This document shows, piece by piece, positions 2,093-42,389 of a DNA stretch of 48,564 nt; within the stretch, counting starts at the first letter, position 1, and each line of letters starts with the position of its first letter. The translations under genes were made by a program, and so were the position numbers. The DNA is from Candidatus Cerribacteria bacterium 'Amazon FNV 2010 28 9' (lineage in GTDB: Bacteria; Patescibacteriota; Microgenomatia; UBA1400; UBA12028). The notes under the pieces were generated by a model. The model worked only from the letters and a program-made list of their open reading frames with translations. It made no database searches and had not been told where the DNA came from. Location of the stretch: NCBI GenBank assembly GCA_003176165.1, contig PSRQ01000022.1:1-48564 (forward strand), read 5' to 3'.

Positions 2093-4756
2093 ATGAAAAA
2101 ACAAAAGCAGAGTATTTCATTATTTTTTGTACGAGCATTTCTGGGTGTGTGTTTTATTGTGATTTTTCTTATTTCTACGAGGAATGTTTTCGCGCAATCG
2201 TGTAGTAATTTACGATGCTGTACTGCCTATGTAACTGTGTATGATCCCTTTGGATGTGATAGTAGTGGTTGTCCTCCCAAAACTCTTCCCAACGGAGATC
2301 CAAATCCAGATTATAATCCATCCTGCTATAACTGCACAAGCAATCATCAAGCTTGTGGACTTTATCAAAACTTTACATGCAATCCTCCATCTGGCCAGTG
2401 CGACCCATTCATTCCTCAGGCGTGCCAAGGAGAAGTGAGTGGATGTAGTCAACTTGGACCTCCCCCAAGCAGTGGACCTACTCCTACCCCTGGAGGTGGC
2501 GGAGGTGGTGGGGTCACCTGTGGAGGTGGCAGTAACCCTGCGTGTTATTCCGTAGGCAACTGTGGAGTCGTGGGAAAAACACCAGGATCGGGAAGTTGTA
2601 GTGCGGGACAGATTTGCTGTATCGATAAATCGGGAGGAGGTGCGACGTCTACCAATCAAGGTGTGTTCGTGTATTGCCAGGATGGCAGTGGTCCGCAATA
2701 TCCACTCCCCGGAATCCGTGTGCTTTCTGTTGGAACGCATAGCAACAATGACTGTAGTGGAAATTGTCGTCAATCATATCCGGATGTGACCACTGACTCT
2801 AATGGACGGGCTATGTTTGGATTGCTTTCCACGTTCCCCGCAGAGTATTTTGAGTTTGCTCTCGATGTGCCAGGATGGGAGTCGGGGGGAAGTTGGATTT
2901 TGCATACCAATCCACTGACTCAGTATGCAGGAACAAAGATCGCGGCGACGGGGCAAGATTATGCAAACCTGACGTTGGGTGATACGCACAACTCCGTACT
3001 CGAAAACTGTGCAAATGGTGGAGGTGTGTGGGGATGTCCGATCATTGGGGGTACTTCATCACAGTGTGGAGGATGGTACTGTAGTGCTGGAGGAGGAAGC
3101 TGGGGAACGTCCACTCCAATTTTGTACCAAGTACAGGAAAATAACAATTCAGATAATGGTGGAGGTGGGTATCAAGCTCATTTCCACTTTAGTAACTGTA
3201 GTTGTTCAGCACCCTTGGCTCCCAATCCGACCAACCCGCTCGATGGAGGGACACTTACCTTGAATGGCAGTAATCAAGTGACCGTCTCCTGGACCGCTCT
3301 CTCTGGAATCACCCAATATGACCTTGAGCTCTACCCGACTGGAACAGATTGCAACAATTCAAACTCGCACTGTACGTATGTGGGTGGAGTAGGAGGAGGG
3401 ATTACCGGCACTTCGTATACCTTTACTCCTGCAGCGGGGGTGAGCTCGTATTACTTCCATGTTCGAGGGGTCAATACGAGCTGTACAGGAAACCTTACCG
3501 GTGCATGGTCCAGTGATGCAAACTTTACTATTTCGGGAACATTGTCTGGAACGGTATACAATGATCCATCTGGAGTAGGGCAACTATCTGGCACATTGTG
3601 CCAAAATCTTTCTGGACAAACACTCTCTCCAATTGGAAGTGGAACGGTGAATGTACAACCAAATACAGGAGTGGGAAGCTCGCAAGGATTTGTACAATCC
3701 AATGGGACATGGAGCGCTACAGCTCAATTTGGACCACTCAATACTGTGTCCATCTCACCTAGCGATCCCTCATATTTTTGTACTTGTCCACTGGGGTGTG
3801 GATATGGAGGAATAACACCAAACAAAACAGGTGTTGATTTCTATCTGAGTAAAATTGGCACGGCATGGTATCAAGTCAAAGGAGGAGATGCGATCGCTGG
3901 CATTGTGAGTTCAAGTCGATTTACGGACCCGATCACCTCCCAGTGTACGACTCCAAGTTGTTCTCCATACGTGATCTTGCCATTTGACAATAGTGGTGTC
4001 AGTGAAGGATCGCTGACTGTGGGCCCTGGTACGACCATTGATGATTCTGATCAATCAGGTAATCAATCGACCAATATTGGAGCTCCAGGATCAAACTACG
4101 TTGCGACGATGAATAGCTCGCTTGCATGTAAAGAAAATTACGAGTACTTTTATCGCCTCTACAGTATGGGGACGAGTCCGCAGGATGATTTCACTGCGCC
4201 CGCAAATCCACCGACCAATGCCGCGTTGCCGTCGGTTGCGCCGCTCAATAAAAACGTGGATGGATCAAGTAAAAATTCCTACTATCACAATGGCGACCTC
4301 ACGATTGGACAAAACTGGACGGTGCCTGCAGCAGGATCGTACGTTATTTTCGTCAACGGCAATTTAAATATCACCAATAATGCACAGATTACTGTGCCGC
4401 AGGGAGCGTTCTTGTCATTTTTCGTCAGCGGTAATATCACGATTGATCCGACTGTTGGAAGTATAATTCCAAGTTCCACTACCGGTGTGGTACAAGGGAT
4501 CTATATTGCCGATGGATCGCTCACCGTCCAATCTGCAGGCTCTGGAAATACTGAGAAGAAATTTATTGGCGAAGGGACATTTGCAGCCTGCCAGGGGGTG
4601 TCACTGCCTCGTGATTATCGCAATGGAGGTGATCAAGCGGGACTCAATAACAATACGTATCCAACCTCACTCTTTGTATTCCGTCCTGACTTTATGATGA
4701 ATACCCCAGCGACGATGAAGGTAGCCCCATTCAATTGGAAGCAGGTGGCACCATAA
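2093..4756 (+). CDS. large secreted Cys-rich surface protein (FN3-like and beta-helix-like segments)
   Basis: 887-aa ORF. It has an N-terminal signal/anchor ending VFAQS, dense Cys modules, poly-Gly and Pro/Thr linkers, and a VTVSWTALSGITQYDLELYP FN3-like stretch. C-terminal NGNLNITNN / SGNITIDP repeats look beta-helix-like. Confidence 0.7.
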   Translation: MKKQKQSISLFFVRAFLGVCFIVIFLISTRNVFAQSCSNLRCCTAYVTVYDPFGCDSSGCPPKTLPNGDPNPDYNPSCYNCTSNHQACGLYQNFTCNPPSGQCDPFIPQACQGEVSGCSQLGPPPSSGPTPTPGGGGGGGVTCGGGSNPACYSVGNCGVVGKTPGSGSCSAGQICCIDKSGGGATSTNQGVFVYCQDGSGPQYPLPGIRVLSVGTHSNNDCSGNCRQSYPDVTTDSNGRAMFGLLSTFPAEYFEFALDVPGWESGGSWILHTNPLTQYAGTKIAATGQDYANLTLGDTHNSVLENCANGGGVWGCPIIGGTSSQCGGWYCSAGGGSWGTSTPILYQVQENNNSDNGGGGYQAHFHFSNCSCSAPLAPNPTNPLDGGTLTLNGSNQVTVSWTALSGITQYDLELYPTGTDCNNSNSHCTYVGGVGGGITGTSYTFTPAAGVSSYYFHVRGVNTSCTGNLTGAWSSDANFTISGTLSGTVYNDPSGVGQLSGTLCQNLSGQTLSPIGSGTVNVQPNTGVGSSQGFVQSNGTWSATAQFGPLNTVSISPSDPSYFCTCPLGCGYGGITPNKTGVDFYLSKIGTAWYQVKGGDAIAGIVSSSRFTDPITSQCTTPSCSPYVILPFDNSGVSEGSLTVGPGTTIDDSDQSGNQSTNIGAPGSNYVATMNSSLACKENYEYFYRLYSMGTSPQDDFTAPANPPTNAALPSVAPLNKNVDGSSKNSYYHNGDLTIGQNWTVPAAGSYVIFVNGNLNITNNAQITVPQGAFLSFFVSGNITIDPTVGSIIPSSTTGVVQGIYIADGSLTVQSAGSGNTEKKFIGEGTFAACQGVSLPRDYRNGGDQAGLNNNTYPTSLFVFRPDFMMNTPATMKVAPFNWKQVAP

Positions 4757-9278: not shown

Positions 9279-10169
9279 ATGTTTATTGGGGGACATGTTA
9301 GCGCAGCGGGTGGAATTAGCTTGGCGTATGGACGAGCCAAAGAGATTGGGGGCAATGCCGTCCAAATTTTTTCTGCAAGTCCTCGTGTGTGGACACGTAA
9401 AGATATAGCACAAAGCGAAATTGATCGCTGCCTGCAATTTCAAAAAGAGTTGGGTATTACAAAAACAGTTATTCACGCCATTTATTTAGTCAATCTTGCC
9501 TCGGATAACAAAGAGTTGGTTGAAAAATCACGCAACTGTATTGAATTTGATTTACGTGTGGATGCGGCACTACATGGGAGTGGTGTTGTGGTGCATGTGG
9601 GCAGTCATCAAGGAAAAGGATTTGAGGCGGTCTTTGATCAGCTCGTACATGAGATTAAAATCATTCTTTCCAATACTCCTGAAAATTCCACCTTTCTCAT
9701 CGAAAATAGTGCAGGACAAAATGGAAAAATTGCGTCGGATTTGAGTGAAATTCGCCGTCTCATCGACGCAGTGGGTTCGCCTCGATTGGGGTGGTGCTTG
9801 GATACGTGTCATGCATTTTGCGCAGGATACGAGCTAGAGAACTCATTAAATTCTCCCCTTTCGCACCAACCACCCCTAACCCCTCCTTCGGAAGGAGGGG
9901 AATCAAAAAATGTAATTGAAGAAATTGATCGATTACAGTTGTGGGATACCCTGAAGGTCGTACATGTGAATGACTCGCGTGACTCGTTTGATAGTGGTCG
10001 TGATCGTCACGAAAATATTGGTGAGGGAAGCATCGGAGATGATGTGTTTCGTTCCTTTTTCTCGCATGAAAAGATCCGCACACTTCCGCTCATTATAGAA
10101 GTACCTGGGATTGATCACAAGAGTGGGCCGGATAAAGAGAACATAGAACGAGTGAAAAGGTTGATGTAA
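9279..10169 (+). CDS. nfo: endonuclease IV (AP endonuclease family 2)
   Basis: MFIGGHVSAAGG, IENSAGQ, LDTCHAFCAGY and HVNDS..RDRHENIGEG motifs. Confidence 0.9.
   Translation: MFIGGHVSAAGGISLAYGRAKEIGGNAVQIFSASPRVWTRKDIAQSEIDRCLQFQKELGITKTVIHAIYLVNLASDNKELVEKSRNCIEFDLRVDAALHGSGVVVHVGSHQGKGFEAVFDQLVHEIKIILSNTPENSTFLIENSAGQNGKIASDLSEIRRLIDAVGSPRLGWCLDTCHAFCAGYELENSLNSPLSHQPPLTPPSEGGESKNVIEEIDRLQLWDTLKVVHVNDSRDSFDSGRDRHENIGEGSIGDDVFRSFFSHEKIRTLPLIIEVPGIDHKSGPDKENIERVKRLM
9853..9903. repeat. CCCCTCC-type hairpin element inserted in frame in nfo
   Basis: TTCTCCCCTTTCG..CCACCCCTAA then CCCCTCCTT cgg AAGGAGGGG (9880-9900). The segment CCACCCC..GGAGGGG (about 9869-9901) matches 28/33 with 45874-45906. 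It encodes SPLSHQPPLTPPSEGGE. Confidence 0.7.
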
Positions 10170-10177
10170 TACTCAAC

Positions 10178-10283
10178 TTTGTCATCTCGACCGTGCCAAG
10201 TAATCTTGGCAGTGGAGAGATCCCTTTCAGATCCATCCGAAAGCGATTCCTCATCTGCGCTTCGCTCCGTTCGGAATGACAAG
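10178..10283 (+). repeat. MITE-like element about 100 bp long (GTCATC..GAATGAC termini)
   Basis: About 66 of the first 75 positions are identical to the reverse complement of 33281-33375. Lies in the nfo-folD spacer. Confidence 0.75.
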
Positions 10284-10324: not shown

Positions 10325-11311
10325 ATGAGTATTATTTTCGACGGAAAAGCATTCGCACACAAAAAAGAACTCCAACTCAAAAAAGAAGTTGATGATTTGC
10401 GTTCGAGGGGCATTGTTTTACGTGTCAAAACGTTCACGTTCAAAGAAGATGCGGGAAGTATGTTGTACACGCGACTCAAAAAAGAAGCAGCGGCACGCAT
10501 TGGCATCATGTACGAACCAGTTGAATATTCTCTTCACGACGATATTGAACAAATTGCTGAGGCTATTAAAACAGCAAGCGAAGAGAAGGGCATTACGGGG
10601 GTGATGGTGCAAAAACCGGCAAAAGCAGTGTTTAACCAGGAGAGCATTGTCAACAGAAATTTTGAGGATTGGTGGTCAACTTTGACCGCAGCGATCGATT
10701 CCAACAAAGATGTGGATTGTTTGACCAAAGAAAATCTGGAAAGAATCTACAATCTTTCTCCCCTTTCGAAGGGGAGAATACAAGAGGAGTTGGTGGATGG
10801 AGGGGAATACGTGATTCCTGCTACTGTACGAGCTTGTCTTGCAATTTTGGAAGAGGCAAAGCGTGTGTTGAGCATTTCAAACGAAGAATGGAAAAAGAAA
10901 AAAACGCTTGTTATTGGACGATCAGATATTGTGGGGAAACCGTTGGCAGCGTTGTTGAAACAGCGATGTGCAACAGTTGAGAACTGGGGAAGAAAAGAGT
11001 TGGAGAAAAGTATAAAGAAATTTTCAATTTTCAATTTTCAATTTTCAAAAAACATACATAAGAGAGATCATTTTTTAACAACTGACTTCGACATCATTAT
11101 TTCTGCCGTTGGGAAACCAAATTTAATCACAGGAACAAGGGTGAAAGAAGGGGCGATCGTCATCGACGTCGGTGCTCCAAAAGGTGATGTGGAGCGCGAA
11201 AGCGTGGAGTCTACAGCTTCTTTTCTTACTCCTGTTCCCGGTGGAGTTGGTCCCATGACTGTGATATGTTTAATGGAGAGTATTGTAGAGATTGGTAAGA
11301 ATTTTCTCTAA
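10325..11311 (+). CDS. folD: bifunctional methylenetetrahydrofolate dehydrogenase/cyclohydrolase
   Basis: VIGRSDIVGKPLAALL, ISAVGKP, VIDVG and LTPVPGGVGPMT motifs. At 328 aa it carries two extra segments. Confidence 0.9.
   Translation: MSIIFDGKAFAHKKELQLKKEVDDLRSRGIVLRVKTFTFKEDAGSMLYTRLKKEAAARIGIMYEPVEYSLHDDIEQIAEAIKTASEEKGITGVMVQKPAKAVFNQESIVNRNFEDWWSTLTAAIDSNKDVDCLTKENLERIYNLSPLSKGRIQEELVDGGEYVIPATVRACLAILEEAKRVLSISNEEWKKKKTLVIGRSDIVGKPLAALLKQRCATVENWGRKELEKSIKKFSIFNFQFSKNIHKRDHFLTTDFDIIISAVGKPNLITGTRVKEGAIVIDVGAPKGDVERESVESTASFLTPVPGGVGPMTVICLMESIVEIGKNFL
10753..10810. repeat. hairpin element in frame in folD
   Basis: TCTCCCCTT tcg AAGGGGAGA (10757-10777, 9-bp arms) plus a G-rich tail. 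It shares the 13-mer TTCTCCCCTTTCG with the nfo insert. Confidence 0.65.
11018..11051. repeat. tandem heptamer array AATTTTC x4 in frame in folD
   Basis: Copies at 11019-25, 11026-32, 11033-39 and 11040-46. It encodes FSIFNFQFS. Confidence 0.85.
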
Positions 11312-20482: not shown

Positions 20483-20490
20483 ATGATGTT

Positions 20491-20640
20491 AAAAATTTTC
20501 AATTCTCAATTTCCAGTACATATTTAAATGATGTAATGAATAGTTTGAATTATTGTAACATTGAAAATTCAATGCAAATTAAACATTGCATAATTGTAAA
20601 TTGCTCTTGACGCTTTTCGCTTCACGCTTTACGCTGTCAC
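20491..20640. repeat. block of degenerate tandem heptamer arrays in the nth-rdgB spacer
   Basis: TTCAATT CTCAATT (20491-20519). AACATTG AAAATTC AATGCAA ATTAAAC ATTGCAT AATTGTA AATTGCT (20557-20605). CTTGACG CTTTTCG CTTCACG CTTTACG CTGTCAC (20606-20640). Confidence 0.75.
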
Positions 20641-21825: not shown

Positions 21826-21850
21826 GAGGGTAGGGTACAAGGAGAACATC

Positions 21851-21878
21851 CAATTTTCAATATTCAATGTTCAACTTA
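21851..21878. repeat. tandem heptamer array CAANNTT x4
   Basis: CAATTTT CAATATT CAATGTT CAACTTA. Its reverse complement matches AACATTGAAAATT at 20557-20570 (about 13/14). Confidence 0.65.
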
Positions 21879-28853: not shown

Positions 28854-29085
28854 AATACACAGCGACCTTGCGTAGAAAATCTTCTTTTTCCTTGGGTTCA
28901 ATTAACTCATACCAAAATTCTTTCCACGGTTGAGGCATCCGCTGAAAGCTGACAATATCATCACTATTCGTATGAATAAAATGAAGCCACGCCATGATTT
29001 CGACAGGATCCAGATCTTTATGGTCGTGTGACCATTCGCTTAAAATGTATAACTCATGGGGGGTAAACGCCTTTTCATTCTTCAT
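28711..29085 (-). CDS. hypothetical protein, 3' end overlapping prs convergently
   Basis: 124-aa ORF. The first 75 aa or so look protein-like. The last 48 aa or so lie antisense to the prs 3' end. Confidence 0.35.
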   Translation of the reverse strand: MKNEKAFTPHELYILSEWSHDHKDLDPVEIMAWLHFIHTNSDDIVSFQRMPQPWKEFWYELIEPKEKEDFLRKVAVYSTKSNPSTPEQTHLPQTLHAILEMISRKYQWYRSQLHGILHLLATWH

Positions 29086-29103
29086 ATATGGTATACTAGC
29101 ATA

Positions 29104-29340
29104 CAGGCTATGGAAGAGTTCCTACCTCTTTACTCTTCGCTCGAGAGAAGCCGATGTGGACAACTCCGCCATGGCGGGGCCTAACACATCCGAGTGACAA
29201 CCGTCAGTTTGTCAAAATGAAGTTAAACAAACGGTGGTACCGTGCCGCCTCACCCCGACCCTCTCCTCGTAGAGGCGAGGGAGAGAATGCACCCGTTTAT
29301 TCACAAGGTTTTTTGTGAGTAAGCGGGTGTTTTTTTATAC
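29104..29340 (+). promoter_or_regulatory. T-box leader (tRNA-sensing riboswitch) controlling proS
   Basis: T-box core AAACGGTGGTACCGTG (GGTGGTACCG at 29233-42). Terminator CACCCG..CGGGTG plus T7 (29289-29336), whose 5' arm can instead pair with the T-box sequence. Upstream AGAGAAG. Candidate CCU specifier at 29180-82. Extended -10 TGGTATACT at 29089-97. Confidence 0.7.
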
Positions 29341-29365
29341 GCATTTGATTACAATGAAAGGAAGT

Positions 29366-31194: not shown

Positions 31195-31308
31195 TTGTCA
31201 TCCTCATGAAAATGAGGATCATGAAACGCTTGGATTGATCCGTTCGTTTCGGTTTGATCAGAACCTTTCTCACAAAGGGATGATCCTCGCCTGCGCGAGG
31301 ATGACAAA
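31195..31308. repeat. GTCATCC..GGATGAC MITE-like element with two internal hairpins
   Basis: TTGTCATCCTCAT gaaa ATGAGGAT ... ATCCTCGC ctgc GCGAGGATGACAA. Confidence 0.7.
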
Positions 31309-33267: not shown

Positions 33268-33280
33268 AACTTCTTTTTCT

Positions 33281-33375
33281 TTGTCATTTCGAGCGAAGTC
33301 GAGAAATCGCTTTCGGATTTTTCCTGAAAGTGATCTCTCCACTGCCAAGATTACTTGGCGCGGTCAAGATGACAA
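33281..33375 (-). repeat. MITE-like element, inverted copy of 10178-10283
   Basis: Its reverse complement aligns with 10178-10283, sharing TTGTCATCT.GACCG.GCCAAGTAATCTTGGCAGTGGAGAGATC. Confidence 0.75.
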
Positions 33376-40573: not shown

Positions 40574-40604
40574 GCATTCTAGTGGCTAGTTTTCCTTGTT
40601 GTTT

Positions 40605-40633
40605 GAAAATTAAAAATTTGTAAATTGAAAATT
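40605..40633. repeat. left inverted heptamer arm flanking dnaX
   Basis: GAAAATT AAAAATT T GTAAATT GAAAATT, 27/29 identical to the reverse complement of 42317-42345. Confidence 0.85.
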
Positions 40634-40640
40634 GATTTGT

Positions 40641-42314
40641 ATGTCTTGGTATCGTCAATATCGACCACAAACTGTAGCTGGTCTTCACATCACTCCCGTG
40701 CGGGAGAATTTTTTACATATCTTGGAAAGTGGATCCTTTGCGCATGCGTACCTTCTCTGTGGTCCCAAAGGAACGGGGAAGACAAGCGGTGCACGGATAT
40801 TGGCAAAAGTGTTGAACTGTGAAAAAAATAGGGAAACAATACAGAGGGGATGGGTTGGGGATCAGGGGTTAGAAAAGAAAGCGGAAAGTGGAAAGGGGAA
40901 AACGCTTGACGCTAAACGCTTCACTCTCTGTGAGCCATGCAATGTATGTCCAACGTGTATCGCCATCACCAATGGAACGAGTATGTGTGTGACAGAAATG
41001 GATGCGGCGAGCAATCGTGGGATTGATGATATTCGAGAGTTGACCACGAGGGTGGGGCTTTCTCCAGCAGATGGAGTAGTCAGTGTGTACATTATTGATG
41101 AAGTGCATATGCTCACAACTGAGGCATTTAATGCCCTGTTGAAAGTGTTGGAAGAGCCACCACAGCACGTTGTCTTTATTTTAGCGACAACAGAGCGTCA
41201 CAAAGTTCCTGAGACGATTTTGTCCCGTTGTCAGCTGATCGCGTATCGCAAAGCCACTATTGATGAGGTATGGGTGGCCCTGCGCGCGATTGCAACGGCC
41301 GAAAGAATTGAGGCAAGTGATGAAGTGTTGCGACGGATCGCCACTCTTGCAGATGGGAGTTTACGTGATGGAGTGAAGTTGTTTGAGCAGGTTGGAAAAG
41401 GGAAAACGAGTGTCACCTTGGACGAAGTGAATAGCTCACTTGGAGAGGGAAATAGTGAGATTGTGGAACAATTCATCACTGCGTTAGCAAAAAAAGATAT
41501 CGAGCGCATCCTTACACTTTGTTCTACCCTTGAACAGGGAAGCATCAATGGAGCTCAGTTTCAAAAAGATGTTCTTTCGTCACTGCATGCACGACTCATT
41601 GGAGCCCCTGCAAAAAAGAATCCCCATTTTCCAACCTATGTGGCACTGTTACAAAAGTTAAACGTTGCTATTTCTCCCAATCTTCCCATTCCTTGGCTTC
41701 CATTTGAACTCGCAGCAATGGAGTGGTGTCTCTCCTCTTGTCATTCCGTAGGAGGCAGCGAAGCGTGCCTGCATACGGAATCCACTAAAACTGAACTCAA
41801 TTCGTTGTCTGAGCGAAAAAAGTCAAGCGATAAACCAGATGCAACATTCAAAAATGAGGAGCAAGCAAGTTCTACTCTTGATTCTTTACCCTTAACCCTT
41901 CCAAAAGAAAAAGAAGTTGTTGATGTAAAAAAAAAGAATGAAGAGCCTCTTGAGTTAGAAAGTATCCCCATTGATTTTCAAACATTTCTCTCCTCCTGGC
42001 ATAGTGTATTGCAGTTACTCAAAAGTAAAAACTCTTCACTGGAGGCATTATTACGCTCGACAAAGCCCACAGGTATTGCCGGAAAATATGTTGAAGTCAG
42101 TGTGTCATACAAATTTCACAAAGAGCAACTGGAATTGGATCGCAATTTACTTGTCATCGAAGATGTGTTGTTTGCGATTTATAAATTGAAAATGACGCTA
42201 CGTTTTTCACTCGTTGAAAAAGCAAAGCAAGCTGCCATTTCTCCTGACAGTAATTTGTCGGGAGTGGTACACGATGTATCGCTCGTCAAAGCTGCCGAAG
42301 ATGCATTCCTGTGA
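40641..42314 (+). CDS. dnaX: DNA polymerase III subunit gamma/tau
   Basis: WYRQYRPQT, GPKGTGKTS Walker A, the CEPCNVCPTC zinc module, and the SRC motif (ILSRCQ). Confidence 0.9.
   Translation: MSWYRQYRPQTVAGLHITPVRENFLHILESGSFAHAYLLCGPKGTGKTSGARILAKVLNCEKNRETIQRGWVGDQGLEKKAESGKGKTLDAKRFTLCEPCNVCPTCIAITNGTSMCVTEMDAASNRGIDDIRELTTRVGLSPADGVVSVYIIDEVHMLTTEAFNALLKVLEEPPQHVVFILATTERHKVPETILSRCQLIAYRKATIDEVWVALRAIATAERIEASDEVLRRIATLADGSLRDGVKLFEQVGKGKTSVTLDEVNSSLGEGNSEIVEQFITALAKKDIERILTLCSTLEQGSINGAQFQKDVLSSLHARLIGAPAKKNPHFPTYVALLQKLNVAISPNLPIPWLPFELAAMEWCLSSCHSVGGSEACLHTESTKTELNSLSERKKSSDKPDATFKNEEQASSTLDSLPLTLPKEKEVVDVKKKNEEPLELESIPIDFQTFLSSWHSVLQLLKSKNSSLEALLRSTKPTGIAGKYVEVSVSYKFHKEQLELDRNLLVIEDVLFAIYKLKMTLRFSLVEKAKQAAISPDSNLSGVVHDVSLVKAAEDAFL
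40881..40929. repeat. seven tandem heptamers in frame in the dnaX zinc-module loop
   Basis: GCGGAAA GTGGAAA GGGGAAA ACGCTTG ACGCTAA ACGCTTC ACTCTCT. CTTGACGCT..CGCTTCAC also occurs at 20606-20626. Confidence 0.65.
41738..41783. repeat. GTCATTCCGTAGGAGGCAG..GCCTGCATACGGAATCC element in frame in dnaX
   Basis: Same element type as the secD tail copy (25689-25750). It encodes CHSVGGSEACLHTES. Confidence 0.7.
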
Positions 42315-42316
42315 AA

Positions 42317-42345
42317 AATTTTCAATTTACGAATTTTCAATTTTC
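42317..42345. repeat. right inverted heptamer arm flanking dnaX
   Basis: AATTTTC AATTTAC G AATTTTC AATTTTC, starting 2 nt after the dnaX stop. Confidence 0.85.
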
Positions 42346-42389
42346 ATTCGTCGTGTTACCATAGCGCTGTTAAAAGAAAAAGGAGTCGT

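Follow-up and report, generated by a model that had tools for sequence, protein, structure and literature searches.

A short multi-copy repeat of probable BoxC/PIT type, in frame in nfo of a candidate-phyla-radiation bacterium and flanking most DUF559 genes examined in other genomes

The nfo (endonuclease IV) gene of Candidatus Cerribacteria bacterium 'Amazon FNV 2010 28 9', at 9279–10169 on the forward strand of the 48,564 nt stretch analysed here (the window), includes a run of codons that raises two questions: where did it come from, and does it do anything for the enzyme? A preliminary description attributed about 15 extra residues to a small palindromic element and placed sibling copies upstream of dnaB and in the leader of proS, and all three sequences are indeed in place. 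The nfo reading frame matches Pfam AP_endonuc_2 (E = 4.8e-41), and the SHMT-x-nfo-folD gene order is conserved in relatives.

The extra peptide is real and is slightly longer than first described. Codon alignment with the orthologues L240 and L241, where it is absent, revealed an in-frame segment of 51 nt (9852–9902, forward strand) that makes up codons 192–208 (S P L S H Q P P L T P P S E G G E) and encodes SPLSHQPPLTPPSEGGE. The nearest syntenic Nfo orthologues, which are 70% and 68% identical, have 13–17 codons fewer at this site, and the 20 kb loci of the orthologues contain neither the insert nor any other such element. As the nearest orthologues are only approximately 70% identical, the exact boundary of the insert is approximate. 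Orthologues that shared the peptide without the nucleotide palindrome would have pointed to ordinary sequence; instead, the syntenic orthologues lack the peptide altogether. When the sequences of solved Nfo structures were aligned, a 19-residue gap fell exactly at SPLSHQPPLTPPSEGGESK, in a loop whose length varies among homologues anyway, from 0 to approximately 30 residues. The longer loops of homologues P0004, P0006, P0008, P0011, P0013 and P0016 were considered as further copies and, judged at the peptide level, rejected, as they share an ..LF.. pattern that suggests a native loop.

The suggestion that the insert might form a surface loop away from the metal site is consistent with an AlphaFold model, in which the blocks covering residues 191–210 are low-confidence coil (pLDDT 53/59) with no secondary structure, and with the Nfo alignment, in which all metal-ligand positions (9/9) fall in invariant columns. 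The copy in nfo most likely does nothing for Nfo, adding a 17-residue loop that is probably disordered and leaves all nine metal ligands intact; a role is improbable because the element would survive in genes only in permissive surface loops.

The extra bases end in AACCACCCC-TAA-CCCCTCCTT-CGG-AAGGAGGGG, the core of which, CCACCCCTAACCCCTCCTTCGGAAGGAGGGG, occupies 9870–9900. On the forward strand, this consists of a 5' tag, AACCACCCC (9868–9876), a TAA linker (9877–9879) and a hairpin, CCCCTCCTT-CGG-AAGGAGGGG (9880–9900), with a 9 bp stem that was recovered by an exact palindrome search and has a predicted RNA fold of −15.9 kcal/mol (z = −2.2). The linker, TTA on the G-rich strand, corresponds to the second loop of 'type A' in the Escherichia coli triplex motif (PMC4666352). 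The complement of the tag, GGGGTGGTT, is a predicted third triplex strand: read from the sequence, this strand pairs antiparallel to the purine arm AAGGAGGGG with six G.G-C and three T.A-T triplets and no mismatches, and a 7 nt version of it was found by the triplex search. That search used published criteria (PMC4666352), namely a pyrimidine stem, a loop of 1–6 nt, a purine stem, a second loop of 1–6 nt and a mirror purine stem, with stems of 6–15 nt and at most one mismatch.

The copy upstream of dnaB, A-CCACCCC-AAA-CCCCTCCT-CAGGC-AGGAGGGG (45873–45904, forward strand), was found by repeat, mismatch and palindrome searches between an MBL-fold gene, whose stop codon ends at 45862, and dnaB (45915–47243, forward strand; Pfam DnaB and DnaB_C), whose ATG at 45915 is 10 nt past the AGGAGGGG arm. 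A hand count reproduced the reported 28/33 identity between 45874–45906 and 9870–9902 in nfo, and the repeat search gave 83% over 40 nt. This copy has a perfect 7–8 nt triplex layout on the minus strand and an 8 bp hairpin (−15.6 kcal/mol). It is an 'A variant', a form accompanied in other genomes by GGGGC following the arm.

The third copy described earlier, CCTCACCCC-GA-CCCTCTCC(TCG)-TAGAGG-(CGA)GGGAGAG (29248–29285, forward strand) in the proS leader, is a relative of the element and not a diverged copy of the same form. It belongs to a sister subfamily, CCCTCACCCC..CCCTCTCC, for which a consensus was built from 145 instances in 120 viral loci. Its 5' half agrees exactly with that consensus, CTCACCCC-NN-CCCTCTCC, and includes an exact match to CTCACCCCNNCCCTCTCC (0.01 expected), while the 3' arm has degenerated and the predicted fold scores no better than those of shuffled sequences (z = −0.88). 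An intrinsic terminator, a 19-pair stem followed by a T run (29289–29330, forward strand), lies directly 3' of this copy and outside the element. The label of T-box given to the leader could not be upheld: Rfam scans gave no T-box match, whether the gathering threshold was applied or the limit was relaxed to E ≤ 1 and then to E ≤ 10, and all that is seen in the leader is a GGTGGTACCG motif and the strong terminator.

Two further sites in the window had been overlooked. A third triplex-type motif, TTCTCCCCTT-TCG-AAGGGGAGAA-TAC-AAGAGGAGTT (10755–10790, G-rich strand on the forward strand), was found by the triplex search in frame in folD. It falls inside 16 extra residues, YNLSPLSKGRIQEELV, that relatives lack, and the first 12 nt of the nfo insert, TCTCCCCTTTCG, are found again at this folD insert. 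The other is a fourth CCCCTCCT hairpin, TTCTTCCCCTCCT-AATAAA-AGGAGGGGAAGAA followed by TTTT (500–523), between two small ORFs. It folds strongly (−25.1 kcal/mol, z = −6.0), has the CCACCCC tag on neither side and is terminator-like; its membership of the family is uncertain.

Matches to CCACCCCWAACCCCTCC with up to three mismatches number two in the window against 0.13 expected, and those to CCCTCC-N3-9-GGAGGG number three against 0.00 expected. The three-block triplex search returned three sites, against none in 100 dinucleotide shuffles, and the triplets satisfied were 9/9 for nfo (CCCCTCCTT-CCG-AAGGAGGGG-TTA-GGGGTGGTT), 8/8 for dnaB and 9/10 for folD.

Further copies, the lack of which would have counted against an element, are numerous: when an exact 18-mer was used to query other sequences, at least 239 loci (at least 120 from metagenomes and at least 119 from genomes) and 12 viral contigs were returned, with coding and non-coding copies among them. 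The 3' arm AGGAGGGG, which was not part of the query, is also present in 223 of 262 exact matches (85%). Matches came from more than 10 phyla, among them Bacteroidota, Cyanobacteria, Patescibacteria, Proteobacteria, Terriglobia and Armatimonadota, with Ignavibacteria, Nitrospinota, Nitrospirota, Chloroflexota, Desulfobacterota and viral contigs as further sources; a BLAST search of plasmids gave only three weak matches. Approximately 12% of external copies (23/187) lie deep inside long open frames, 12 in the sense and 11 in the antisense orientation. Ten host frames were checked by Pfam, and the confirmed genes encode a class I tRNA synthetase, a UvrD-type helicase, SNF2, Wzy_C, CarB, UxuA, MmeI and Type ISP proteins. 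Tandem arrays exist, for example in L046, and raised the idea of a toxin–antitoxin-like RNA repeat, which was dropped as the majority of copies are solitary. An origin from rRNA or tRNA fragments was also rejected, as no tRNA was found in the window and there are no conserved flanks.

The unit common to these copies is A-CCACCCC-(T/A)AA-CCCCTCCT-loop-AGGAGGGG-AA. Its G-rich strand, CCCCTCC-loop-GGAGGGG-TTA-GGGGTGG, has the three-block layout of the BoxC/PIT/"TM" triplex repeats (PMC4666352). Judged from its sequence, the element is a short, sharply bounded, multi-copy and A+T-richer variant of these intrastrand-triplex repeats, and membership of this family would explain the conserved CCACCCC tag. 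The earlier view that a coding region, a spacer and a leader all hold one small repeated element stands, and the element is more than a hairpin, namely a three-block mirror and palindrome unit. Among family members, 92% have A as the tag base at −1. At −2, the tag base is A in 70/85 copies with A as the ninth base of the purine arm and C in 11/14 copies with G (Fisher p = 2e-10, with each copy counted singly and ancestry shared among copies), as predicted by G.G-C and T.A-T triplex pairing. This three-strand covariation in natural sequences suggests that triplex geometry matters.

Just outside A...AA, the information content of the flank profile of external copies falls to approximately zero. 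The profile shows A/AA on the two sides, which may be a duplication or element sequence; the copies yielded neither a target-site duplication nor a clean filled/empty pair, and no transposase was found for the element. Rfam scans, of the window at the gathering threshold and relaxed for three sites and ten external loci, returned no family for it. Searching the literature for the exact sequence of the element or for its peptides turned up nothing relevant, and the triplex papers were reached via the sister-family sequence only.

A gene was repeatedly found beside external copies. In loci selected for the element, 13 of 14 DUF559 ORFs have an element no further than approximately 500 nt away, and inverted copies usually stand on both sides of the gene, as do the 53 nt inverted repeats in L121. 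The bracketed gene encodes a Vsr-fold nuclease (PF04480, E = 1e-26 to 1e-33). When six loci were picked by DUF559 protein similarity alone, all six had elements or remnants at the gene ends, in genomic contexts that differ. The adjacency was also seen in the sister family and in the viral locus L255; a reciprocal test among viral contigs comprised three distinct loci only, of which one, a close relative, is element-flanked and two distant ones are not. In E. coli, a degenerate copy lies at the stop codon of ycjD, with a full BoxC approximately 170 nt downstream, and a search for the empty site showed that in other strains the whole ycjD–BoxC block is replaced. Element-encoded peptides occur in 14 of 120 DUF559 homologues, mostly at a terminus. 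A DUF559-plus-element module lies in frame within MmeI and Type ISP genes, and such cassettes are found in differing neighbourhoods of related Pontibacter genomes. Solo elements are far more numerous than those linked to DUF559, and there is no DUF559 gene in the 48.5 kb window. DUF559 homologues are often on very short contigs, which suggests that the repeats may break assemblies.

The literature on DUF559, Vsr-like nucleases and palindromic elements yielded no paper that links them, and the link between DUF559 and triplex repeats is apparently undescribed. The adjacency suggests, by analogy, a partnership like that of REP and RAYT. One could go further and propose that DUF559/YcjD-like Vsr-fold nucleases are the missing partner enzymes of BoxC/PIT, which would act on single-stranded DNA folded into the three-strand or hairpin form, recognising it and cutting or mobilising the element, in a cross-phylum system of nuclease plus nano-element analogous to RAYT/REP with a different fold; this is a tentative proposal, and we hold it to be possible rather than probable. 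Vsr-fold nucleases nick DNA, and we know of no strand-transfer activity for them.

Overall, we favour an explanation, to which we assign a probability of roughly 0.6, in which a selfish, non-autonomous element of triplex type gave rise to the nfo segment and its siblings. The G-rich strand, when single-stranded, would fold twice: CCCCTCC would pair with GGAGGGG, and GGGGTGG would then fold back onto the purine arm, forming G.G-C and T.A-T triplets. Such a triplex or hairpin would form on single-stranded DNA in vivo, and we infer that the element is mobile and has inserted into unrelated sites across many phyla. Within genes, copies would persist only where a permissive surface loop can take up one of the four open frames of the element. 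The dnaB copy sits in the 5' untranslated region, and the copy in the proS leader is decaying. The putative trans-acting partner would be the DUF559 (YcjD-like, Vsr-fold) nuclease, cutting or mobilising the element as RAYT serves REP.

Chance or low complexity among C-rich and G-rich stretches is already refuted as the source of the similarity by the external copies, 85% of which carry the unqueried arm; the units are short, only two good tagged copies are in the window and 1 of 100 shuffles also gave two matches to the degenerate 17-mer, but no shuffle produced the three-block motif, and practically no weight is left for this reading. That the copies act as RNA, with the dnaB hairpin hiding or presenting a Shine-Dalgarno sequence and others serving as terminators or mRNA stabilisers, draws on AGGAGG, the sole such motif upstream of dnaB and part of the −15.6 kcal/mol hairpin, on several external copies with an ATG 5–15 nt past the arm and on the resemblance of the 500–523 hairpin to a terminator. 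However, AGGAGG ends 12 nt before the dnaB ATG, and any Shine-Dalgarno-like motif precedes just 7/31 long ORFs in the window; because of this spacing and rarity, we downgraded such a role for the dnaB copy. Coding copies show no strand bias, a hairpin alone leaves the conserved, covarying 5' tag unexplained, and PIT elements acted neither as promoters nor as terminators when studied in E. coli (PMC4666352), all of which makes a function as RNA very unlikely.

The same covariation would reflect selection on triplex geometry if the elements were immobile, host-selected non-B DNA signals, such as replication pause sites or hotspots of recombination or variation, that arose and are maintained locally and are processed by DUF559 proteins as repair-type nucleases. 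E. coli copies are tied to local instability with transposases absent nearby (PMC4666352), and the failure to see a target-site duplication also fits. Near-identical, sharp-ended units of 35–40 nt in unrelated contexts in more than 10 phyla do not, nor do tandem arrays or the differing positions of the Pontibacter cassettes, and in-frame copies within conserved enzymes are hard to justify as signals, so we regard this as unlikely. We are similarly doubtful that DUF559 is a selfish gene for a nuclease of homing type, one that lands on pre-existing elements, abundant and conserved as they are, without mobilising them, the elements having spread otherwise. Gene and element are arranged variously (with inverted copies facing inward or outward, with direct copies, or with doublets on both sides), the modules in MmeI and Type ISP genes could have arisen in this way, and a family of Vsr-like homing endonucleases is known (PMC3239194). 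But simple homing should leave split half-elements beside DUF559, of which none was seen, the flanking copies being complete, and the spread of the solo copies, which outnumber those linked to DUF559, would have no explanation.

The window shows that a variant of the BoxC/PIT-type repeat extends to candidate-phyla-radiation bacteria and can be carried in frame in housekeeping enzymes, Nfo and FolD here and CarB, UxuA, a class I tRNA synthetase and UvrD elsewhere. To our knowledge, BoxC/PIT repeats, known in E. coli since the 1990s, have no accepted origin, mobility mechanism or function, and we know of no role for the very common DUF559 family. With DUF559 genes bracketed almost constantly by the repeat, E. 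coli ycjD included, these two questions merge into one that can be tested in E. coli. A system of DUF559 nuclease and element, if it exists, could insert 35–50 nt units and whole DUF559 cassettes in frame in essential genes, and would account for some of the additional loops that candidate-phyla-radiation proteins typically have. The units also seed spurious small ORFs and add peptide motifs (PPLTPP, TTPNPS, EGLGVV and GGVRGG) to annotated proteins.

Several known repeats share some of these properties. The Rickettsia palindromic elements (Ogata et al. 2000, cited in PMC1779305) are reportedly selfish palindromic repeats found in frame in housekeeping genes, where they add surface peptides and function is kept. 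The likeness is confined to in-frame insertion, as those repeats are 100–150 bp, occur in Rickettsia and relatives and have no triplex layout or known partner gene, while the element described here is approximately 35–40 nt and unrelated in sequence. The very small dispersed repeats of cyanobacteria, from Elhai et al. in 2008, are said to be tiny, non-autonomous, nested or tandem, and both intergenic and intragenic, and our element resembles them and MITEs (reviews PMC2229807 and PMC10969869) in these respects; it is far smaller than typical MITEs, which have terminal inverted repeats with a target-site duplication and a cognate transposase. REP sequences and the REPINs associated with RAYTs (PMC3733652) are also short palindromes with a conserved 5' tag and many dispersed copies, and in both systems a single small nuclease-type gene lies between inverted copies. 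However, the flank profile shows the element to begin with A-CCACCCC (5') and to finish with AA (3'), and a GTAG or CGTC tag is absent; its tag mirrors the stem whereas the REP tag is a guide sequence, and its sequence is common to many phyla whereas REPs are species-specific. The candidate partner is a Vsr-fold PD-(D/E)XK nuclease (DUF559) and not a Y1/HUH (IS200/IS605-like) transposase.

[quoted passage not shown] 2015, PMC4666352). For E. coli BoxC, a stable triplex is reported in vitro only; no footprint was found in vivo, and genes for mobility were absent nearby (PMC4666352). Like these, the element has three blocks, a 3 nt loop (TTA or CCG) and a length of approximately 35–40 nt, and is conserved, multi-copy and of unexplained origin: a script search found the three blocks in the nfo, dnaB and folD copies, and conservation in many copies is evident from the at least 239 loci and 12 viral contigs. 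The TMECO consensus is CCCTCNCCC-N3-6-GGGNGAGGG-N3-GGGNGAGGG (PMC4666352). E. coli-type stems (CCCTCNCCC/GGGNGAGGG) are matched by the family in viral contigs and by the third copy in the window, the decayed one at 29248–29285, which alone has the CCCTCACCCC..CCCTCTCC form. The good copies in the window have 7–9 nt stems, GGAGGGG/GGGGTGG and not GGGNGAGGG, and therefore appear to represent a variant subfamily rather than TMECO itself. The hosts here are A+T-richer and include candidate-phyla-radiation bacteria, and genic copies occur (in frame in nfo and folD, and deep inside open frames for 23/187 external copies), whereas E. coli copies are reported to be always intergenic. Finally, the element is associated with DUF559, in contrast to the absence of associated mobility functions reported for the E. 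coli repeats (PMC4666352).

The nfo ORF (9279..10169, forward strand; Pfam AP_endonuc_2) includes an in-frame segment at 9852-9902 on the same strand that encodes SPLSHQPPLTPPSEGGE, with the element core CCACCCCTAACCCCTCCTTCGGAAGGAGGGG at 9870-9900. The preliminary description had reported extra Nfo residues here, and both the residues and the positions given for its sequences were borne out. The named homologues of Nfo place the window in Patescibacteria (candidate-phyla-radiation bacteria). Two syntenic relatives, whose Nfo proteins are 70% and 68% identical to that of the window and which keep the SHMT-x-nfo-folD-...-rpsB-tsf-frr gene order, are 13-17 codons shorter precisely here and lack the peptide at the same point of the orthologue alignment. 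No such elements were found in the 20-kb loci of these two relatives. Alignment with solved Nfo structures leaves a 19-residue gap at SPLSHQPPLTPPSEGGESK. In L389, a locus from another candidate-phyla-radiation genome (Microgenomatia UBA1400) encoding the Nfo homologue P0071, the same loop holds two different in-frame palindromes (3577-3626 and 3651-3677, with arms of 23 and 12 nt), so that insertions seem to land here repeatedly. An AlphaFold model of Nfo is confident overall (mean pLDDT 89.6, pTM 0.89), the blocks over residues 191-210 have pLDDT of 53 and 59 and no secondary structure, and the alignment shows no variation at any of the nine metal-ligand positions. In our reading the nfo copy gives the protein a surface loop that is probably disordered. 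Homologues have anywhere from 0 to about 30 residues in this loop, which makes the position permissive anyway.

The intergenic sibling copy (45874-45906) has an MBL-fold gene on one side and dnaB (ATG at 45915, forward strand; Pfam DnaB) on the other. Its identity to the nfo core was confirmed as 28/33 by direct count, and a repeat search aligned the two copies at 83% identity over 40 nt. Within the window, a 17-mer with up to three mismatches returned 2 matches (0.13 expected) and the palindrome CCCTCC-N3-9-GGAGGG returned 3 (0.00 expected); these matches are not due to chance. A fourth, previously overlooked hairpin came out of the palindrome search at 500-523, between two small ORFs. This perfect 13-14 bp hairpin, TTCTTCCCCTCCT-AATAAA-AGGAGGGGAAGAA, has the arm sequence of the element and no tag; TTTT and a TATAAT-like box come after it, and it is probably a terminator. 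In folD (10325..11311, forward strand), 16 extra residues, YNLSPLSKGRIQEELV, that are absent from syntenic relatives (10748-10795) are encoded in frame by a triplex-type unit, TTCTCCCCTT-TCG-AAGGGGAGAA-TAC-AAGAGGAGTT. The folD insert opens with the same 12 nt, TCTCCCCTTTCG, as the nfo insert (9852-9863).

The copy near proS belongs to a sister form, CCCT-CACCCC-NN-CCCTCTCC(C)-loop-GGAGAGGG-RG, the 5' half of which is matched exactly at 29249-29266, while the 3' arm has decayed. The proS leader had been called a T-box, but Rfam gave no such match even at E <= 10, and the leader (29085-29345) holds only a GGTGGTACCG T-box-like motif and a strong 19-pair terminator. The decayed element lies precisely between the two, and its presence there may be why the T-box covariance model fails. 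The proposal that one element occurs in a coding region, a spacer and a regulatory RNA thus holds for nfo, the dnaB spacer and, in decayed form, the proS leader; the T-box label was not confirmed.

A literature search with the sister-form sequence pointed to the paper of Holder et al. 2015 (PMC4666352), where BoxC, PIT (potential intrastrand triplex) elements and 'TMECO' are three names of one family. The published pattern is CCCTCNCCC-N3-6-GGGNGAGGG-N3-GGGNGAGGG, with TTA or CCG as the second loop; CD and NMR demonstrated the triplex in vitro, and it was not seen in vivo (PMC4666352). The G-rich strand of the nfo copy reads CCCCTCCTT-CCG-AAGGAGGGG-TTA-GGGGTGGTT, with nine predicted triplets, all perfect G.G-C or T.A-T; eight are predicted in the dnaB-upstream copy. 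A three-block search of the window returned the nfo, dnaB-upstream and folD sites, and none in 100 dinucleotide shuffles. This layout explains the conserved CCACCCC tag, which is complementary to the predicted third strand, and the triplex model predicts that the variable tag base -2 tracks the ninth base of the purine arm. As predicted, base -2 is A in 70 of 85 copies with arm base A and C in 11 of 14 with arm base G (Fisher p = 2e-10, from counts that ignore relatedness among copies). Judged on its sequence, the element has the structure that defines an intrastrand triplex motif.

Further copies beyond the window were found when the exact 18-mer CCACCCCWAACCCCTCCT was used as a query: at least 120 loci in metagenomes, at least 119 in genomes (one per GTDB species) and 12 matches in viral contigs. 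Although the AGGAGGGG arm was left out of the query, the 18-mer is directly followed by a short loop and then by AGGAGGGG, exact or with one mismatch, in 223 of the 262 metagenome and genome matches. Across 160 non-redundant instances, conservation is limited to A-(18-mer)-loop-AGGAGGGG-AA and is zero just outside. The hosts include Bacteroidota (Pontibacter, Hymenobacter, Prevotella), Cyanobacteria, several Patescibacteria classes, Proteobacteria, Terriglobia, Abditibacterium, Armatimonadota, Ignavibacteria, Nitrospinota, Nitrospirota, Chloroflexota and Desulfobacterota. An Rfam search with the element matched no family. The sister form is even more common, found in at least 120 viral contigs, and also has sharp ends. 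Tandem arrays were seen in two external loci, L046 and L137. In L046, two units with a 41-nt period (1960-2060) follow the stop codon of a DUF559 (Vsr-fold nuclease) ORF, and the arms of a third (about 1810-1960) are split by ~140 nt of unrelated sequence.

Among 187 external copies, 23 (about 12%) are embedded 60 codons or more within long open frames, 12 in sense and 11 in antisense. The usable frames of the element yield four recurring peptides (PPLTPP, TTPNPS, EGLGV(V) and GGVRGG), and the remaining two are interrupted by stop codons. Pfam identified the host frames as real genes, encoding a class I tRNA synthetase, a UvrD/AddA-type helicase (element within the helicase domain), an SNF2 helicase, an O-antigen ligase in a Patescibacteria genome, CarB (within the oligomerisation domain), UxuA (within the domain), and MmeI and Type ISP restriction enzymes. 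In-frame carriage is thus a recurrent property of the family.

In loci selected by the element, 13 of 14 DUF559 ORFs, recognised by the motif FRRQ..DF..ExDG..H (six confirmed as PF04480, E = 1e-26 to 1e-33), were no more than about 500 nt away from an element, usually enclosed by a pair of inverted copies. In Pontibacter cellulosilyticus, a 372-nt DUF559 gene lies between 53-nt inverted repeats that each contain a whole unit. A complete DUF559 domain with flanking elements is found in frame inside MmeI-type and Type ISP genes in an uncultured cyanobacterium (L131) and a member of the Bacteroidetes (L128); this module looks intein-like and has no visible splicing domain. Reciprocally, six loci were picked solely for DUF559 protein similarity; their neighbourhoods are unrelated (Band_7/NuoC, UvrA, ProRS/zeta toxin, GH31/fucosidase, Era), and all six had elements, or termini derived from them, at one gene end or both. 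Element-encoded peptides were present in 14 of 120 DUF559 homologues, in 11 as a C-terminal TTPNPS before the stop, and many homologues were on contigs of 500-2000 nt, typical of repeats. The link extends to the sister family and to one viral locus. No DUF559 gene was found in the window.

The DUF559 gene of E. coli K-12, ycjD, carries a degenerate unit at the stop codon, and a full BoxC lies ~170 nt downstream. The ycjD to fabI spacer (L388 5163-5761) contains a duplicated fragment of the ycjD 3' end and the full BoxC after the degenerate unit. The site of the ycjD-BoxC block is occupied by eefRABCD in other phylogroups (strain comparison; bioRxiv 10.1101/2024.08.01.606150), and the homology of these strains with K-12 is common only from about 40 nt beyond BoxC. 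The triplex paper states that its authors found no mobility functions near the motifs (PMC4666352), and the DUF559 link is unmentioned there or in other literature found, though it may be described elsewhere. Neither a target duplication nor a clean empty site was found for the element.

The window contains other repeats. A second extra FolD segment, KKFSIFNFQFSKNIHKRDHFLT, is encoded by an (AATTTTC)n repeat (11015-11056), with 22 residues absent in the relative L240 and 15 in L241. Other (AATTTTC)n copies (20483-20515, 21841-21873, 42314-42346 and, inverted, 40597-40641) are intergenic and adjoin gene ends. A MITE-like element of about 100 nt with ends TTGTCAT...ATGACAA is at 10179-10280, inverted at 33280-33375 and possibly at 31195-31307; the first two share 94% complementarity across 52 nt. 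One of them occupies the spacer between nfo and folD, 155 nt long here against 1-4 nt in relatives.

We consider it probable (about 0.6) that a selfish, non-autonomous triplex/hairpin element left solo copies in nfo, upstream of dnaB, in the proS leader and in folD. Copies would persist where they are harmless, and the DUF559 nuclease, proposed purely from gene adjacency, may be the partner that acts on the folded single strand. The same adjacency could reflect DUF559 homing onto pre-existing elements, and the elements could be non-B DNA signals selected by the host; both appear unlikely, and to a similar degree. RNA-level roles for the copies are more improbable still, as the lack of strand bias argues that the element acts at the DNA level. 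There is a weak case that the dnaB copy might supply a ribosome-binding site, but the spacing is 12 nt and such a motif is present in only 7 of the 31 long ORFs of the window.

The element is a real feature and a variant of a known yet unexplained repeat family. It is not demonstrably a MITE. It is not a REP, as no GTAG/CGTC tag or RAYT was seen, and identity with the Rickettsia palindromic elements was rejected, although in-frame carriage in genes is shared with them. Because it lacks the specific TMECO consensus and does not keep to the reported intergenic habit, we assign it to a variant subfamily; BoxC in E. coli K-12 is described as 'always intergenic' (PMC4666352), whereas the present family has in-frame copies. 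In-frame coding copies and the DUF559 association are two properties not found in the literature searched, and the proposed action of DUF559 on the folded element would resemble that of RAYT on REPs.
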